From NCBI GenBank assembly GCA_030699685.1, contig JAUYLJ010000054.1, positions 309-64,308 of the forward strand: a stretch of DNA of 64,000 nucleotides, given 5' to 3'. The position numbers were made by a program, and so were the translations under genes. The notes beneath the pieces are model-generated. The model was given only the letters and a program-made list of their open reading frames with translations, was not told the origin of the DNA and made no database searches. Below are positions 2,443 to 46,580 of this stretch, in pieces (positions within the stretch are counted from its first letter, which is position 1; each line of letters opens with the position of its first letter). This DNA is from a bacterium. GTDB lineage: Bacteria; Patescibacteriota; Patescibacteriia; JAHIZJ01.

Positions 2443-2519
2443 AAGCTCATTTGGAATATCACCGATATTCCTTGTACTGCGAATTTTACCTGGACATAAA
2501 ATGTTGTTAAGACGGCTCT

Positions 2520-2545
2520 AAAAAAACTCCCGGACCAACCGGGAG
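2520..2545 (-). terminator. intrinsic terminator (CTCCCGG-ACCAA-CCGGGAG hairpin, U-tract on minus strand)
   Basis: Perfect 7-bp GC stem followed by TTTTTTT on the minus strand just after the stop of 2554..3246; may also act on the plus strand. Confidence 0.7.
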
Positions 2546-2553
2546 TTTCGCGG

Positions 2554-3246
2554 TTATGCTTTGATTGATTCAAGATTGATGTCCGGCAGTCCCTCGGGCA
2601 GCTCACCCCAGCCATGAGCAGTTTCGGGTTTACCGAGAGTCATTTTCTTGCCATACACTGATTGTTTGTCCGGCGCCCGGTATTCGACTTTCACCGTAAT
2701 GACGGGTTCGGATTCGCCAGGTCTCTCGGCATGACTCGAGACAGGTTTTTCCGCTCGGTTCACGCTTGCGACTTTGACGTGGCCGTTGATCTGTTCGTAA
2801 GTCTTTGTCTCGTCCCATTGCTCGCCTTTTTTCTCGCCTTCGGTATTTTCCCCAAAGAAGCGTGTACAGTTGCCGTCCTCGTCGTATTCATAGTTGTTTT
2901 CCCAAGCGTGTTCCCGGGCCAGATGCTTGCCTATTTCTTTGGTTGGTTTTGTCGGATGACGTTTATCACCGTATTCCAGACGCCGTTGGCTGACTGATTT
3001 CAGTTCCTGTGAGTCTTTCCATTCGCCGTCAAATTGCGCCCGGTGATAGTCCCAGCGCTTCTCTGCCACCGTACGGCCCTCGGTGTCTTTATACGTTTCC
3101 AGTTTCGGATCGCCGTTTTCGTTTTCCTGCCTTTCCCACTGCATCTCCGCCAGCGACGGGTCCGTTTCTAGGGCACTGCGGCCGGGAATTTCTTCAACCA
3201 GCGGCCGAGGTTCGCCATCGATTCCTCCTCGTTCTTTTTCTGCCAT
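2554..3246 (-). CDS. hypothetical highly charged (E/K/D/W-rich) protein
   Basis: 230-aa ORF, low-complexity acidic with recurring W-[ED] motifs; followed by an intrinsic terminator. Confidence 0.5.
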   Translation of the reverse strand: MAEKERGGIDGEPRPLVEEIPGRSALETDPSLAEMQWERQENENGDPKLETYKDTEGRTVAEKRWDYHRAQFDGEWKDSQELKSVSQRRLEYGDKRHPTKPTKEIGKHLAREHAWENNYEYDEDGNCTRFFGENTEGEKKGEQWDETKTYEQINGHVKVASVNRAEKPVSSHAERPGESEPVITVKVEYRAPDKQSVYGKKMTLGKPETAHGWGELPEGLPDINLESIKA

Positions 3247-3308
3247 GGTTGTAAGGCTTAAGAATGATTGTTTCCATCTTATCGTGTATTGGGCCTCGAG
3301 GCAAGTAG

Positions 3309-3336
3309 TTGACTTTTTCAGAGTCTATGGTATGAT
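3309..3336 (+). promoter_or_regulatory. sigma70-like promoter (TTGACT-16nt-TATGAT) for leader ORF / tRNA-Asn
   Basis: -35 TTGACT at 3309-3314, -10 TATGAT at 3331-3336. Confidence 0.5.
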
Positions 3337-3345
3337 GTAGGAAGG

Positions 3346-3393
3346 ATGAAACATTTCGACAACAACTTAACTAACAACAATACCCAGTTCTGA
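3346..3393 (+). CDS. candidate 15-aa Asn-rich leader peptide MKHFDNNLTNNNTQF
   Basis: ATG right after AGGAAGG; 5 of 15 codons are Asn (AAC/AAT); the stop codon overlaps the antiterminator segment GACTGGC (3392-3398). Confidence 0.35.
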   Translation: MKHFDNNLTNNNTQF

Positions 3394-3421
3394 CTGGCAG
3401 CTTTTTGACTTGTTAGTAAGA

Positions 3422-3455
3422 GGCCAGTCGCGAAGAGACTGGTCGTTTTGTTTTT
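3422..3455 (+). terminator. intrinsic terminator / attenuator (8-bp stem, loop GCGAAGA, GTTTTGTTTTT)
   Basis: GGCCAGTC/GACTGGTC stem followed by a T-tract; the upstream GACTGGC can alternatively pair with GCCAGTC (3423-3429). Confidence 0.6.
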
Positions 3456-3548
3456 AGATCATCGTTTCGGGAGTAGTTCGGCCGGTAGAACCCCGTACAA
3501 CTGCTATGTAGTTTATGGGGCAAGCGCTCCGCATTTTGTCCGCCGTAC

Positions 3549-3620
3549 TCCGAGGTAGTTCAATGGTAGAACGCTGCACTGTTAATGCAGATGTTGGAGG
3601 TTCGAATCCTCCCCTCGGAG
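3549..3620 (+). tRNA. tRNA-Asn (anticodon GTT)
   Basis: 72-nt cloverleaf folded by hand: acceptor TCCGAGG/CCTCGGA, D-arm GTTC-AATGGTA-GAAC, anticodon arm CTGCA-CTGTTAA-TGCAG, T-arm GGAGG-TTCGAAT-CCTCC, discriminator G. Confidence 0.93.
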
Positions 3621-3679
3621 CTCGGCGGGAAAGGCTCCGGCGCTTACGTGAAATCTTTAGGCTATGCTACAATGCCAGC

Positions 3680-4432
3680 ATGAACCAGAAAATATTCAAT
3701 TCCAGAAAGGAAAAACTTGATACGCTGGTTGAGGGTCGCAATGGAAATTTGACCATTGTGATGGTCCATGGCTTTGGGACCAGCAAAGACGAGAACGCGA
3801 GAATGTTTATCGACATTTCCAAACGTCTTTCCGCTTACGGGCGGATCGTGCGTTTTGACTTTGCCGGTTACGGCCAGAGTGAAGGTCGTCAGGAGGACGT
3901 CAATCTGAATACTATGGCCGATGACCTGAAGTCAGTACTTGATTGGGTTCGAAAGAAATATGGAGGCCGTATTATGATCCTGGCGCATTCTTTTGGCACG
4001 CTTGTCACTCGCTATCTCTCTCCGGATAGTATTGAGAAGACTATTTTTACCGGTATCACTCCACCTGACGTGAAAGCGCATATGGAGTCAACCATGAAGA
4101 GAATTCAAAGTCGGGTCGGAGGAAGCCTGAGCGAAAACGGGGTAAGCATCTATCCCCGAAAAGATGGAGAAGTACAAAAAATCGGCAGTAGTCATTGGAA
4201 AATTCTTCGAGAAGTCGACCCTCTGAGATTGGCCAAGATACTCGCTCAAAAGACAGACTTAATCATCATTAAGCCCATGCAAGATGAGATTGTCGGCGGT
4301 GAAGCTACGACGGAGCAATATAAAACAATTTCCGGGATCAGATTCATCGAGCTTGACGGAGATCATAACTTTACCTCTCAGCGTGATAGGAGGGGATTGT
4401 TAAATACTCTGGAACGACTGATTGCTGGTTAG
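3680..4432 (+). CDS. alpha/beta-fold hydrolase
   Basis: HGFG oxyanion motif and nucleophile elbow AHSFG; the ORF-track start at 3515 runs through the tRNA and is an artefact; the real start is ATG 3680. Confidence 0.7.
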   Translation: MNQKIFNSRKEKLDTLVEGRNGNLTIVMVHGFGTSKDENARMFIDISKRLSAYGRIVRFDFAGYGQSEGRQEDVNLNTMADDLKSVLDWVRKKYGGRIMILAHSFGTLVTRYLSPDSIEKTIFTGITPPDVKAHMESTMKRIQSRVGGSLSENGVSIYPRKDGEVQKIGSSHWKILREVDPLRLAKILAQKTDLIIIKPMQDEIVGGEATTEQYKTISGIRFIELDGDHNFTSQRDRRGLLNTLERLIAG

Positions 4433-4433
4433 C

Positions 4434-4467
4434 ATAAAAAAAGCGTGTCACTTTTCTTCTGCCACGC
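4434..4467 (-). terminator. putative terminator of the copper operon (AAGCGTG...CACGCTT stem, T7 tract)
   Basis: 7-bp stem overlapping the copZ stop, followed by TTTTTTT on the minus strand; the loop is long (~15 nt). Confidence 0.45.
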
Positions 4468-4684
4468 TTGCCGTGTAGTCCAGTTTTTGTATTTCAGCAA
4501 TAATCGCATCGAGACTTTGCTGTCCAGGATCATAGGCTACGATAGTGGTAGATTTCGCGTAGCTTGTTTCACTTTGGATAACTCCTTCAAGATCCTCTAG
4601 GGCTCCGTCAATATTCATGGCGCAGCTCACGCAATGCATTCCCTGAATGTTCAGCTTCACTCGTTGTTCGTTTGTGTGTTCCAT
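4448..4684 (-). CDS. copZ: copper chaperone CopZ (HMA domain, GMHCVSCA)
   Basis: 78 aa with the MxCxxC heavy-metal-associated motif. Confidence 0.85.
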   Translation of the reverse strand: MEHTNEQRVKLNIQGMHCVSCAMNIDGALEDLEGVIQSETSYAKSTTIVAYDPGQQSLDAIIAEIQKLDYTASVAEEK

Positions 4685-4700
4685 AGATTAATCCAATATT

Positions 4701-5768
4701 TTATATAACCTCGAAGGTTCCCGTGTACATTCCCATCGAACAAGCGAATACATATTGCCCCTTCTTGGTTGGGGTAAAACGGAATGTTTCGCTGTCGGTT
4801 GGTTCCAACAACGCATAGATGCCAAATTGCCGGAAAGTGAAAGCGGAAGCGCAGCTATAAACGTCATTTGTTTCCACGGTGAGCTCTACCGGCACTCCGG
4901 CTTTAACTTTGATACGATTTGGTTTGTATCCATAATCCTGTACTTCAATATGTACTTTTTGGATCTCGGCTATGCTGATATCGGGACTGGAAAAATTCAC
5001 CTCTTCGCCATTGGATGAAGCGGATCCATTCGCGGAAAAAGCCAGCTGTATCCGCTGCCAGGAAATTGGCGCGTCCACTGCTTGCAAAACTCCGTTGAAG
5101 CTGTAGAGGGACATTCCCACCAACAGCAAGGCGGCAAATTTCAAAAATTTCACTTGCAACGATTCACTAAGTTTCGCCGTGGCAATGCCGATAAACCCGA
5201 AAATCGGCGCCGTGCCCAGCACGAAAACCATCATAATCAGCGCTCCCGTGATCGGATTTCCGCTGTTGATCGCCAGGACTTCCATGGCCTGGGTCACCCC
5301 GCAGGGAATAAAAACAGTGAAAACCCCGAGGATGGTCGGCGCGAAGAACGATGACGCCTTGCTGGATTGTCGCACCTTTCTTTGGATAAATTTCGGCGGT
5401 TGAAAAGCCACGAAACGGAAGATCGGGTGGACGTTGAAAAGATTAAGCGCCGTGGTCAGCATAAAGGCGGCGGCCAAAACCTGGAAAAAAATTTTCACGC
5501 CAAAACTGAGGGTGAAAACCGATCCCAAAGCTCCCAAAAGGAAACCAAGTATGCCGTGGACTACGAGTTTTGACCCCAGAAACATGACCACCGGCAGCCA
5601 GTCGCCCTTGTCAAAAGAACGAGACGCCAATTCCGGTGAATCGGGGCTGTCCCGAAAATCCTTTCGTTTTTGATTGGCGATAATGGACGCCAACAATCCT
5701 CCCTGAACGGCCAAGCACGCCAACCCGCCGGTTGTCAGGCCAGTCAGAAAAACAACCCAAAGGTTCAT
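4701..5768 (-). CDS. membrane permease (TauE/SafE-like) fused to a C-terminal cupredoxin-like metal-binding domain
   Basis: N-terminal [17 protein letters not shown] helix motif and multiple TMs; C-terminal ~90 aa beta-sandwich with Cys/Met/His (YSCASAF...[10 protein letters not shown]). Confidence 0.5.
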
Positions 5769-24656: not shown

Positions 24657-25076
24657 TTATTGACAATTATTACAATAACCGAAAAATTCCAACGCGTGCC
24701 GTTCTATGGCGAAATTAAATCTCTTGGCCAGGCGAGTTTCTTCCCGACCCAGATCCTGCTTAAGTTTAATATCGGTGATGGAATCACATTTGAGGCAGAC
24801 CAGATGGTGATGATGCTGTTGGGTGATTTCATAGCGTTTTTTTCTGTCGTGAAGTCTGACCTCAACGAGAATATCCTGGTTCATTAGGAAATCGATTTCC
24901 CGATAGAGAGTGGTCTTGTTTGGTTTGAGATTCTGCTGGCTGAGTTTCCCAATGATTTCAGGAACGGACAGGGGAGTGCTTGAATTCGAAAGCAGCTCGA
25001 GTAAACGAAACCGTACCGGCGTTTCTCGGAAGCCTCGCCGCTTTAGATTTTCAATAATTTCCGGGGCATGAACCAT
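24657..25076 (-). CDS. zur: Fur-family regulator (probable Zur)
   Basis: wHTH N-domain; HHHHLVCLKC and CNNC metal sites; operonic with the ZIP transporter. Confidence 0.8.
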   Translation of the reverse strand: MVHAPEIIENLKRRGFRETPVRFRLLELLSNSSTPLSVPEIIGKLSQQNLKPNKTTLYREIDFLMNQDILVEVRLHDRKKRYEITQQHHHHLVCLKCDSITDIKLKQDLGREETRLAKRFNFAIERHALEFFGYCNNCQ

Positions 25077-25252
25077 GCTTGTATATTAATGCAACTTAGT
25101 TGCGTTTGTCAATAATTCCACTGTGGACAACTGCGATACAGGACTTTACAGGCAGCCTTACTTGATTGAACATGGCTTGACGTGAGGGATCGCATAGGAT
25201 ACTGTTTCGAGGAAAATAACCGATCTCGAGGCGCCTTTTCATCGGAAGGAGG

Positions 25253-30445: not shown

Positions 30446-31750
30446 TTAGTACTGAAATACGTTTTCAAGCTCTACCCGTTTCAGGGCATAGCACCAGTAG
30501 TCGGCATACTGACCGACGATAAAAGGGTACAGTATTTGGCCGTTAATGCTCGTTTTTTGAAAATCTTTCAATTGACGCGCTTCTTCAGGTGAGATGAATT
30601 CCTTTTCCACGCGGCCGTAGACTTGGAAAATGTTCTTTTCTCTCATCATGTTCAGAGTCGGCCTGATTCCTTGACTGACGATCTGATAAACGACTCGATA
30701 CAATTCTTGCTGGACTGCGGGATCGTTTTTCGGGCCGGCCTCAATTTCTACACCGCAAGGGACGAATCTGGTAATCGGACCACGGGCGGCCGATCGTTTC
30801 GACGACCAGATCACAATGTTTTTGACAGGCAACGCAGCGGCCAGAAGGAGGTTTTCAAGCGTCGGGTTGGTTACAATCGTGACGATTCCGGTCTTGGCAC
30901 CGGTGCCGTGCAGGTCGATGACGTAGCGGTAGTTTTGTGACGCCGATACCAGTTCGGCAGCCCGGCGTTCTTCGTAAGCTGGAGAGTTTTTGTCACCGGG
31001 TGCCGAACGGTTTAAGTCGGTGTCAACATATCGGGTGTTATTTTTCACGGCGCGTTCATTACCGATAAGCCAATCGTAATTAATGTTTTGAGTCTCTTGA
31101 CTGACTCGCCGTAATACCTCGGCACCGATAGTTTCATTGCCGTGTGTCGCGGCAATCAGAAGAATTTCTTTTGGGCGCTGGTCTCGAGTTCGGATCAGAG
31201 CCAGTGCCATGGTGACTGCCCGGGCTGGATCGGTCACCGTTTGAATCTTGAAGCGTTTCCGAGAATCAAGATAGTAGCCGGCCAATGAATCGCTCCAGCC
31301 GCCGCTGCCTTTGAGCGCGACCACCGGAATGCCGGCTTGATACGCGATCGTAATTTCGTTGAGCGTCCCGGAGCCCCCACCGATACTAATCACCACGTCG
31401 CAGCTTAAAACCAGCGGCAGTTCGCGCCCGCCACCACGCTCCATGCCGGTGGCTATGATTACATCCGCGTTTGACTCAGCCACGGTTAAGCCTTTCCCGT
31501 ACGTAACCCCGACCGTGAGACCTCCGGCCTTTTTTGCTCCACGGCAAGCCGCTGACGATAAGGAGTCGTAATCTTTTTCAGCGCCAAAGACAAGCGTGGC
31601 ACCATTTTTGGCGATTTCTTCTCCGATTGATTCCGCCAGCGATTCAATCTTTTTCGAATATTGGATATCGCCCATAGTACCAATGACGCCGATTTGAGGA
31701 GTGCGAGGATTGGTTGATTTGTTGGTGAGTGAATTAGTAAATTGTTTCAT
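30446..31750 (-). CDS. fusion protein: LOG/TIGR00725-like (SLOG) Rossmann domain + succinylglutamate desuccinylase/aspartoacylase (AstE/AspA) family domain
   Basis: N-terminal GVIGTMG...ISIGGGSGTLNEITIAYQAGIPVVAL (LOG-like PGGxGT); C-terminal ATHGNETIG...DLHGTG zinc-hydrolase motifs. Confidence 0.5.
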   Translation of the reverse strand: MKQFTNSLTNKSTNPRTPQIGVIGTMGDIQYSKKIESLAESIGEEIAKNGATLVFGAEKDYDSLSSAACRGAKKAGGLTVGVTYGKGLTVAESNADVIIATGMERGGGRELPLVLSCDVVISIGGGSGTLNEITIAYQAGIPVVALKGSGGWSDSLAGYYLDSRKRFKIQTVTDPARAVTMALALIRTRDQRPKEILLIAATHGNETIGAEVLRRVSQETQNINYDWLIGNERAVKNNTRYVDTDLNRSAPGDKNSPAYEERRAAELVSASQNYRYVIDLHGTGAKTGIVTIVTNPTLENLLLAAALPVKNIVIWSSKRSAARGPITRFVPCGVEIEAGPKNDPAVQQELYRVVYQIVSQGIRPTLNMMREKNIFQVYGRVEKEFISPEEARQLKDFQKTSINGQILYPFIVGQYADYWCYALKRVELENVFQY

Positions 31751-32452: not shown

Positions 32453-33382
32453 ATGAAATCACGCAACATAGCAATCGCTGACCTGGGTGGACATGACTTG
32501 TCCCTGCCTATGATTGAACACGGCTCCGGCCGCCCGGAAGTGCTAATTATCAACAATCTTCATGGCAATGAAATAACGGGCTTTTACGTTCTGGATGCCT
32601 TACTCCGTGAATTGCCTAACTCGATTCAGGGCCGGCTCAGGATTATCCCTTGCGCCAATCTATTAGGTTTGGTGGCAAAACAGCGCGCAAATCCGCTTGA
32701 CGGGGCCGATCTGAACAGAGGATTCCCTCCATCGGACAAAGAGCGCGGCGTCCAAGCAGCCATAAAAAGAGTCTTGTTAGAACTGTCGGGTTCAGCCCAA
32801 GTGTTGATCGATCTTCATACTTTCACGCGCCCATCCTTAAGCGCCGTGTTACGTTTGCCGCACCCTCCCAAGCAATCCCGGACATTGGAACGATGCTTGG
32901 CTGTTCTCAACGTGGAAACAGTGATCGACATACCCGACAACTTCGAGGAAAGACCGGTCCAGAGCGCGCTGGGATTTGCTTTGGTCCAAAAAGGAGTAAC
33001 TGTTATTCCGATTGAATTTCCTCCCGCTCATTGCGTAAAGGATAATGCTGAAATTGAATCATTTGCCGCCGGACTTCTGAGCGCGCTGGCTGAACTGGGT
33101 CTGATGAAAAAGATCGTCAAAAGAGAACAACATGTACCGCCATCGTTCCTTCGTCAGCAGGTGATCTCGGACGCGAGCGGATTGTTTTTACCGACAGCGA
33201 CATTGCGGCAAAGCGTGATGGTTGGAGATGTCTTAGGCTTCCTCATTCACCCGCGCAGTGTCACCAAGACGCCGGTAGTGTCGCCGTACAGAGGAATGTT
33301 GTTTGAATTAGCCCAGAGGCAGATGATCGTGTTTGGCGACAAAATAGCAACAGTGGCTCGATCATCAGGCTCAAAAGCTTAA
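32453..33382 (+). CDS. AstE/AspA-family zinc deacylase (succinylglutamate desuccinylase/aspartoacylase-like)
   Basis: LIINNLHGNEITG, DLNRGFP and LIDLHTF zinc-ligand motifs. Confidence 0.6.
   Translation: MKSRNIAIADLGGHDLSLPMIEHGSGRPEVLIINNLHGNEITGFYVLDALLRELPNSIQGRLRIIPCANLLGLVAKQRANPLDGADLNRGFPPSDKERGVQAAIKRVLLELSGSAQVLIDLHTFTRPSLSAVLRLPHPPKQSRTLERCLAVLNVETVIDIPDNFEERPVQSALGFALVQKGVTVIPIEFPPAHCVKDNAEIESFAAGLLSALAELGLMKKIVKREQHVPPSFLRQQVISDASGLFLPTATLRQSVMVGDVLGFLIHPRSVTKTPVVSPYRGMLFELAQRQMIVFGDKIATVARSSGSKA

Positions 33383-43546: not shown

Positions 43547-46580
<3,034 letters not shown>

Follow-up and report, generated by a model that had tools for sequence, protein, structure and literature searches.

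Ribosome-mediated (leader-peptide) attenuation of transcription is textbook knowledge for amino-acid biosynthesis operons and for one synthetase operon. For bacterial tRNA genes, the general view is that control is exerted at the promoter, through growth rate and stringent control. In the 64,000-nt stretch of bacterial DNA analysed here (contig JAUYLJ010000054.1; hereafter the window), the sole tRNA gene, tRNA-Asn, is preceded by a promoter, a short open reading frame (ORF) rich in Asn codons, and a predicted intrinsic terminator whose 5' arm can alternatively pair with a segment at the end of the ORF. The unit is compact, spanning ~310 nt including the tRNA. We consider it fairly probable that this unit is a functional ribosome-mediated transcription attenuator with tRNA-Asn as the regulated gene. 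Relative to the known mechanism, the new elements would be the tRNA target, the leaderless leader ORF and the probable Patescibacterium host.

In its logic, the closest described system is the pheM leader peptide, which controls pheST (phenylalanyl-tRNA synthetase) in E. coli. In both cases, sensing of a charged tRNA would control a translation component for the same amino acid. The target of pheM is a synthetase, whereas the target here would be the tRNA gene, giving direct autoregulation of the sensed molecule. PheL of E. coli also has 15 residues and begins with MKH; this likeness to the leader described here is probably a coincidence. T-box riboswitches, of which Asn-specific members exist upstream of asnS/asnA, are alike in that tRNA charging is sensed and the choice between terminator and antiterminator is made. 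They differ in that the tRNA is bound directly by an RNA of 200-300 nt with Stem I and the T-box sequence, and in that synthetase, biosynthesis and transport genes are regulated.

In its mode of initiation, the unit is closest to the mycobacterial leaderless polycysteine short ORFs, which are Cys-responsive attenuators (Canestrari et al., bioRxiv 10.1101/834739). Both are leaderless with a run of one codon type, and stalling would remodel the downstream RNA in both; the mycobacterial ORFs act on translation, whereas an intrinsic terminator before a tRNA gene is found here. The Proteobacterial leader-peptide attenuators (trpL, hisL, pheL/pheA, thrL, leuL and ilvL) share with the window unit the promoter, the short ORF, the clustered cognate codons and the 1:2, 2:3 and 3:4 pairings, as well as the stop codon at the edge of segment 2 and the selection of the fold by the ribosome position (PMC3082878). 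Their targets are biosynthetic enzymes. In contrast, the unit described here has a tRNA target, a leaderless or near-leaderless ORF without a Shine-Dalgarno (SD) sequence, no sequence homology to them, and a reduced, uncultivated host. It also differs from the 'superattenuation' of the trp type, in which a strong 1:2 helix enforces termination: the 1:2 helix is too weak here, and the untranslated RNA is predicted to read through. For the calling of pheL, at least five cognate codons, at least two of them adjacent, were required in frame together with a terminator and alternative structures (PMC3082878), and all of these are present in the window unit. The original prediction was not aware of any description of the arrangement, and no report of it was found: in the literature, neither a tRNA gene controlled by leader-peptide attenuation nor an Asn leader peptide was met with, which, as the coverage was incomplete, is absence of evidence only.

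The features of the locus are listed in Table 1. The leader promoter shows a 10/12 match together with the TG at 3328-29, and is the top promoter-like site (sigma-70-like) in 2500-5000. The transcription start is predicted near A3343. The distance from the -10 box to ATG3346 is 9 nt, so that GGAAGG abutting the ATG cannot act as an SD sequence, and the leader ORF would be leaderless or have a leader of ~3 nt. Similar layouts are observed elsewhere in the window. At several gene starts, a -10 box precedes the start codon by 6-9 nt and an SD sequence is lacking, and an SD-like tetramer is found at only ~1/5 of the 55 start regions. In the Fur gene (25076-25110, - strand), TTGACA...TAATAT is followed after 6 nt by ATG. 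Leaderless mRNAs thus appear to be common in this organism, and leaderless translation is plausible in view of the layouts at the hydrolase, Fur and other genes and the scarcity of SD sequences.

Five of the 15 codons of the leader ORF are Asn codons, located at 3361-66 (AAC AAC) and 3373-81 (AAC AAC AAT). Such a cluster is rare. Among 529 short ATG ORFs of the window (8-40 codons, six frames), this ORF alone has at least four Asn codons within eight codons. The upstream regions of the tRNA genes at all fetched loci were also compared, and a micro-ORF with at least five cognate residues in eight was found in 1 of 187 distinct regions, namely that of the window's tRNA-Asn.

Four segments following each other from the last ORF codons to the terminator are mutually complementary, giving the full 1:2, 2:3 and 3:4 layout of an attenuator. 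GACTGGC at 3392-98 is complementary to GCCAGTC at 3423-29, and the 2:3 antiterminator helix in the window has 7 bp and an energy of -15.0 to -16.6 kcal/mol. The predicted intrinsic terminator at 3422-3455 consists of GGCCAGTC-GCGAAGA-GACTGGTC followed by GTTTTGTTTTT, with an 8-bp stem, and the 3:4 energy is -13.8 kcal/mol. The 1:2 hairpin (-4.7 kcal/mol), which has CAGCUUUUUG after it, resembles a terminator according to the terminator scan; together with CAGCUUUUUG, it is a candidate for the pause hairpin of the classical attenuator layout. When the 76 nt upstream are shuffled, a perfect complement of at least 7 nt to the 5' arm of the terminator arises in 0.18% of cases; the frequency at randomly chosen window positions is ~1%. 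For the whole leader, the terminator and antiterminator conformers are <3 kcal/mol apart, and the minimum is set by a few flanking bases; in this modelling, the near-equal energies are as expected of a switch. All of the elements that the original prediction had placed here, namely the promoter TTGACT-16-TATGAT, the 15-codon ORF with five Asn codons and a stop codon overlapping GACTGGC, the terminator and the alternative GACTGGC/GCCAGTC pairing, are present in the sequence at the coordinates given for them. Segment 1 and the short distance between the -10 box and the ATG were not part of that prediction. Two other origins of these structures were considered and rejected. The stems do not derive from a repeat element, as GACTGG is merely ~2-fold over-represented in the window and lies outside any repeat family, and the terminator is not the end of an upstream gene, as the upstream gene of the window is divergent.

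Table 1. Features of the tRNA-Asn locus (positions are those of the window).
Feature	Position	Strand	Details
230-aa gene	2554..3246	-	Divergent; function unassigned; synteny anchor leading to L132
Leader promoter	3309..3336	+	-35 box TTGACT (3309-14), 16-nt spacer, extended -10 box TGgTATGAT (3328-36)
15-codon leader ORF MKHFDNNLTNNNTQF	3346..3393	+	ATG 3346; stop codon TGA 3391-93
Segment 1, CCAGT	3384..3388	+	In the last ORF codons; pairs with ACTGG (3393-97) as the 1:2 hairpin
Segment 2, GACTGGC	3392..3398	+	Overlaps the stop codon; 5' strand of the antiterminator
Spacer	3401..3420	+	Small inner hairpin within the antiterminator loop; sequence not conserved
Segment 3, GGCCAGTC	3422..3429	+	Shared strand; pairs with segment 2 in the antiterminator and with segment 4 in the terminator
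Segment 4, GACTGGTC, and T-tract, GTTTTGTTTTT	3437..3455	+	Segment 4 at 3437-44; T-tract at 3445-55
tRNA-like remnant	3466..3520	+	5' half (acceptor strand, D-arm); TTCGGGAGTAGTTCGGCCGGTAGAACCCCGTAC...; at the site of the tRNA-Asn of L132
tRNA-Asn, anticodon GTT	3549..3621 (end 3620/21)	+	ARAGORN; Rfam 75.8 bits; CCA not encoded
Alpha/beta hydrolase gene	3665..4432	+	ATG 3680; own extended -10 box TGcTACAAT (3665-73), 6 nt before ATG; no SD sequence

The 230-aa neighbour has one real homologue, P0055, with 53% identity, on the 85.6-kb contig L132 (GCA_016294925.1), which is AT-rich in the stretch that was read. L132 is the only orthologous locus retaining this upstream neighbour, and its tRNA-Asn lies upstream of and divergent from the 230-aa homologue as in the window. 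The loss of the micro-ORF or of its Asn enrichment in an orthologous locus had been named beforehand as grounds for abandoning the prediction; both are kept in L132. The promoter there is TTGACG-17-TATCAT, with a 10/12 match, and its -10 box lies 7 nt before the ATG. The leader ORF, MIRKTNNQANNNNQS, again has 15 codons, of which six are Asn codons, at positions 6-7, 10-12 and 13. The TGA overlaps GACTGGC in both genomes. The segments CCAGT/ACTGG, GCCAGTC and GACTGGTC are also found in L132, followed by CATTTTGTTT. The terminator has a 7-bp stem and CATTTTGTTT, and the 2:3 helix has 9 bp and -14.7 kcal/mol.

According to the comparison of the two leaders, conservation is confined to the ORF length, the Asn codons and the stems. 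The length from ATG to TGA is 48 nt in both, although just 1 of the 12 nt in codons 2-5 is the same. Two Asn codons are changed from AAC to AAT, at the third position only, in line with the AT-richer sequence of L132. In the peptide, only the Asn residues and Q14 are conserved. Of 20 stem pairs, 19 are retained with unchanged bases, the outermost terminator pair being lost in L132; the two genomes have all of the 2:3 antiterminator pairs in common. Divergence is seen in the loops and in the 24/25-nt spacer. The element is thus conserved in the genome of a second uncultivated bacterium, which is only distantly related to the first.

The tRNA-Asn of the window begins 94 nt past the T-tract, as the original prediction had it, and ARAGORN and Rfam agree on its identity. 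By the promoter scan, no promoter-like site is present between the terminator and the tRNA (3456-3548). In L132, the tRNA-Asn begins ~25 nt past the terminator stem. This gap makes a separate promoter implausible, and no way of transcribing the tRNA other than read-through is evident. A separate tRNA promoter past the terminator had also been named beforehand as grounds for abandoning the prediction, and neither locus gives a sign of one. The gene downstream of the L132 tRNA encodes a Na/Ca exchanger with its own promoter (TTGCAA-17-TATAAT), and the hydrolase is not adjacent to the leader and tRNA there. The downstream genes have their own promoters and are not the same in the two genomes, which leaves the tRNA as the conserved target; the attenuator probably does not act mainly on the hydrolase.

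In L132, the 230-aa gene and the leader promoter are separated by an inserted CorA gene (3807-4868, - strand), with its stop codon 1 nt ahead of the -35 box of the leader. The best homologues of this CorA are only ~55% identical and belong to Nitrospirae, Zixibacteria, Anaerolineae and archaea; from these sequence relationships, it was probably acquired horizontally.

The effect of ribosome position was modelled for both genomes by folding the RNA outside the ribosome, the assumed footprint reaching 13 nt from the first nucleotide of the codon in the A site. A ribosome whose A site holds the stop codon buries segment 2, and of the two alternatives the terminator alone is formed (-12.8 kcal/mol in the window and -10.3 kcal/mol in L132). 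When the A site holds Asn codon 6, 10, 11 or 12 and segment 4 is not yet out, the 2:3 pairing is the minimum (-16.4 to -18.3 kcal/mol). In L132, the 2:3 antiterminator stays the minimum-energy fold after segment 4 emerges. The untranslated leader RNA also folds into 2:3. The switch is thermodynamically feasible, and the logic that had been predicted, in which a stalled ribosome gives the antiterminator and a ribosome at the stop codon gives the terminator, is reproduced in both genomes. Together, the orthologous instance in L132 and the structure modelling support the predicted attenuator control of tRNA-Asn.

Based on these features, the following mechanism is proposed. Transcription from the start at ~3343 would yield an mRNA with the AUG at its 5' end or no more than 3 nt from it, and leaderless initiation would occur on the 15-codon ORF. 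The weak 1:2 hairpin and the U-run would probably pause the polymerase so that the ribosome catches up. When Asn-tRNA(Asn) is plentiful, the ribosome would reach the UGA at 3391-93 and cover segment 2, so that 3:4 is formed and transcription is terminated at the U-tract (3445-55). When Asn-tRNA(Asn) is scarce, the ribosome would stall at the Asn codons 6-7 or 10-12, and the free segment 2 would pair with the emerging segment 3, leading to read-through. The default state would be ON, with the untranslated RNA in the antiterminator fold, and efficient translation of the leader would turn the unit OFF. As a net result, the pool of charged tRNA-Asn would exert negative feedback on tRNA-Asn synthesis. 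That transcription of a tRNA gene is feedback-controlled by its own charged pool in this way, through a leaderless, 15-codon, Asn-rich leader and a terminator/antiterminator pair, has in our judgement a somewhat better than even chance of being correct.

Several points weigh against this mechanism. The 1:2 hairpin is weak. For a stall at codons 10-12 in the window with segment 4 out, the terminator with a local 2:2' hairpin is favoured by 1.3-3 kcal/mol. This preference means that antitermination in the window would depend on kinetics, that is, on the pre-formed helix lasting for the few nucleotides until the U-tract. Translation of the leader ORF on an mRNA with a leader of 0-3 nt is an assumption, plausible from the sequence. 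No compensatory change was found in any stem in the comparison of the two sequences, so the structure rests on conservation and not on covariation. The lack of such changes can be explained by each segment pairing with two partners, as any single change would call for as many as three compensations at once. As for the physiological benefit, more tRNA would be of no obvious help if free asparagine, and not the tRNA, is limiting; the pay-off would be clearer if tRNA-Asn itself is limiting, for example when Asn synthesis is tRNA-dependent.

The narrow distribution of the element counts in the same direction: it is carried by two genomes only and is absent from ~125 other tRNA-Asn loci. Close relatives are missing from the collections: the exact 72-nt tRNA-Asn was found neither in GTDB genomes nor in JGI metagenomes. 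A degenerate tRNA-Asn pattern gave 120 loci in GTDB, mostly from Alphaproteobacteria with ~30 from Patescibacteria, and none has an Asn-rich micro-ORF. A D-arm-specific pattern gave four metagenome loci, in which the tRNAs are identical at 64-65 of 72 positions and are preceded by short plain promoters without a leader. At the five loci with the most similar tRNA-Asn, the element is absent. The expectation of an Asn micro-ORF upstream of tRNA-Asn in relatives thus held for L132 and failed for the more distant L003, L058 and L128-130, which have a plain promoter and no leader before tRNA-Asn. L003 carries the closest hydrolase homologue (63% identity) and keeps the order tRNA-Asn-hydrolase; its tRNA-Asn has no leader and lies behind a plain promoter, TTGCGG-17-TATAGT, 60 nt after a peptidase gene. 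The L003 region 2380-2540 shows that this tRNA-Asn encodes CCA and that the ATG of the hydrolase is located 21 nt past the tRNA without an SD sequence; the hydrolase may be translated from the tRNA-processed transcript.

Other routes to further instances gave the same picture. The stem pattern of the leader had no match in viral contigs and was found only in the window and L132 among 134 loci. The loci of the hydrolase homologues P0003, P0004, P0005 and P0008 have no tRNA, and no tRNA is near the third member of the 230-aa family, P0056, on L134. With the CorA of L132 as a synteny anchor, no relatives were found. An Rfam cmscan of 3100-3800 with E values up to 10 gave the tRNA and chance-level matches only, with no leader family, and the phage database gave tRNA-level matches only.

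The conserved features also bear on three other explanations. The leader could be a structured 5' leader of the pre-tRNA, independent of translation, or a small RNA produced by termination, with the Asn frame an accident of an A/C-rich spacer. The hairpins would then act in processing or stability, or have a protein or an RNA as partner. This would suit the lack of compensatory stem changes and of an SD site, and the AAC/AAT-rich tract is of low complexity, so that one of three frames would read Asn; attenuator RNAs such as rnTrpL can also act in trans. However, the in-frame 48 nt from ATG to TGA are kept despite the divergence of codons 2-5, the Asn codons change at the third position only, and in both genomes the -10 box stands at a leaderless distance from the ATG and the stop codon overlaps segment 2. 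The element moreover precedes exactly the tRNA that reads these codons. We regard this explanation as unlikely. It is very unlikely that the ORF is a small-peptide gene in its own right, complete with promoter and terminator, and that the tRNA is transcribed from a separate, unrecognised promoter past the terminator. The 94 nt before the tRNA in the window would leave room for such a promoter, a weak TAGTTT or CATTTT hexamer is imaginable there, and relatives do have a promoter directly before tRNA-Asn; on the other hand, the scan of that gap was negative, only ~25 nt are available in L132, and the conservation of the peptide at Asn and Q14 only is unlike that of a functional peptide.

A T-box-like RNA, in which the AAC/AAU codons act as specifiers and UGGC of segment 2 binds uncharged tRNA-Asn to stabilise the antiterminator, can hardly be credited, even though the UGGC at 3395-98 is complementary to the discriminator G plus CCA (the GCCA 3' end of tRNA-Asn) and both Asn codons and a terminator/antiterminator pair are present. 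The leader is only ~110 nt long without Stem I or a specifier loop, the UGGC lies within a helix and not in a bulge, and neither the T-box family (RF00230) nor any other Rfam leader matches at E values up to 10; with no Stem I and no T-box motif, identity as a T-box was rejected. A T-box-like RNA would also leave the conserved ORF frame, start and stop unexplained, and induction by uncharged tRNA would be positive feedback. The leader-peptide attenuator is thus the explanation that we retain.

If this attenuator is real, it would be the first tRNA gene under ribosome-mediated attenuation and a new minimal homeostatic circuit, in which a tRNA gene gauges its own charged product through the translating ribosome. 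It would also mean that translation-coupled RNA switches are used by reduced, transcription-factor-poor bacteria, and that leaderless sensory short ORFs extend beyond Actinobacteria. Since the unit is compact, it lends itself directly to in-vitro tests and could find further use as a sensor of Asn-tRNA. More speculatively, if Asn is made on the tRNA by a non-discriminating aspartyl-tRNA synthetase (AspRS) and GatCAB, the tRNA would be a 'biosynthetic' component, and the unit would be the Asn counterpart of the trp, his and phe attenuators. Leaders with cognate codons may, equally speculatively, stand before other Patescibacteria tRNA genes.

The stretch between the terminator and the tRNA-Asn in the window contains a tRNA-like remnant. 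It directly follows the terminator and a TTTAGAT common to the window and L132. Its local alignment with the L132 tRNA has a score that 12 of 2000 shuffled sequences and 11 of 659 tiles of the window also reach; the remnant is not called a tRNA by ARAGORN or Rfam. As judged from the sequence, it is probably a decayed older copy of tRNA-Asn, which now lies within the 94-nt stretch. The present tRNA-Asn (3549-3620) is closest to tRNAs of other lineages, and the arrangement suggests that it replaced the older copy, still behind the leader. An inverted repeat of 6 bp, CCGCCG at 3540-45 and CGGCGG at 3623-28, flanks the present tRNA and would lengthen the acceptor stem of the precursor, perhaps as a helix for processing; alternatively, it may have been left behind when the tRNA copy arrived. 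In addition, CGGAGC at 3616-21 can pair with GCTCCG at 3634-39.

The window comes from the metagenome-assembled genome of an uncultivated bacterium (MDP3964854.1). The hydrolase homologues are named Moran-, Parcu-, Pace- and Woesebacteria, and the gene content, with ArgRS, IleRS, MetRS, RecO, Tgt and ClpB among the genes, is as in a reduced genome. By these relationships, the host is probably a member of the Patescibacteria (candidate phyla radiation). The queuine tRNA-ribosyltransferase Tgt is encoded at 45486-46580. This enzyme modifies G34 of tRNAs with GUN anticodons, including tRNA-Asn, and could influence the decoding of AAC and AAU in the leader. Two genes with the AstE/AspA (succinylglutamate desuccinylase/aspartoacylase) catalytic domain are located at 30446-31750 (- strand) and 32453-33382 (+ strand), one of them carrying a SLOG (LDcluster4) domain as a fusion. 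To find such a pair is unusual in a reduced genome and may be tied to aspartate supply.

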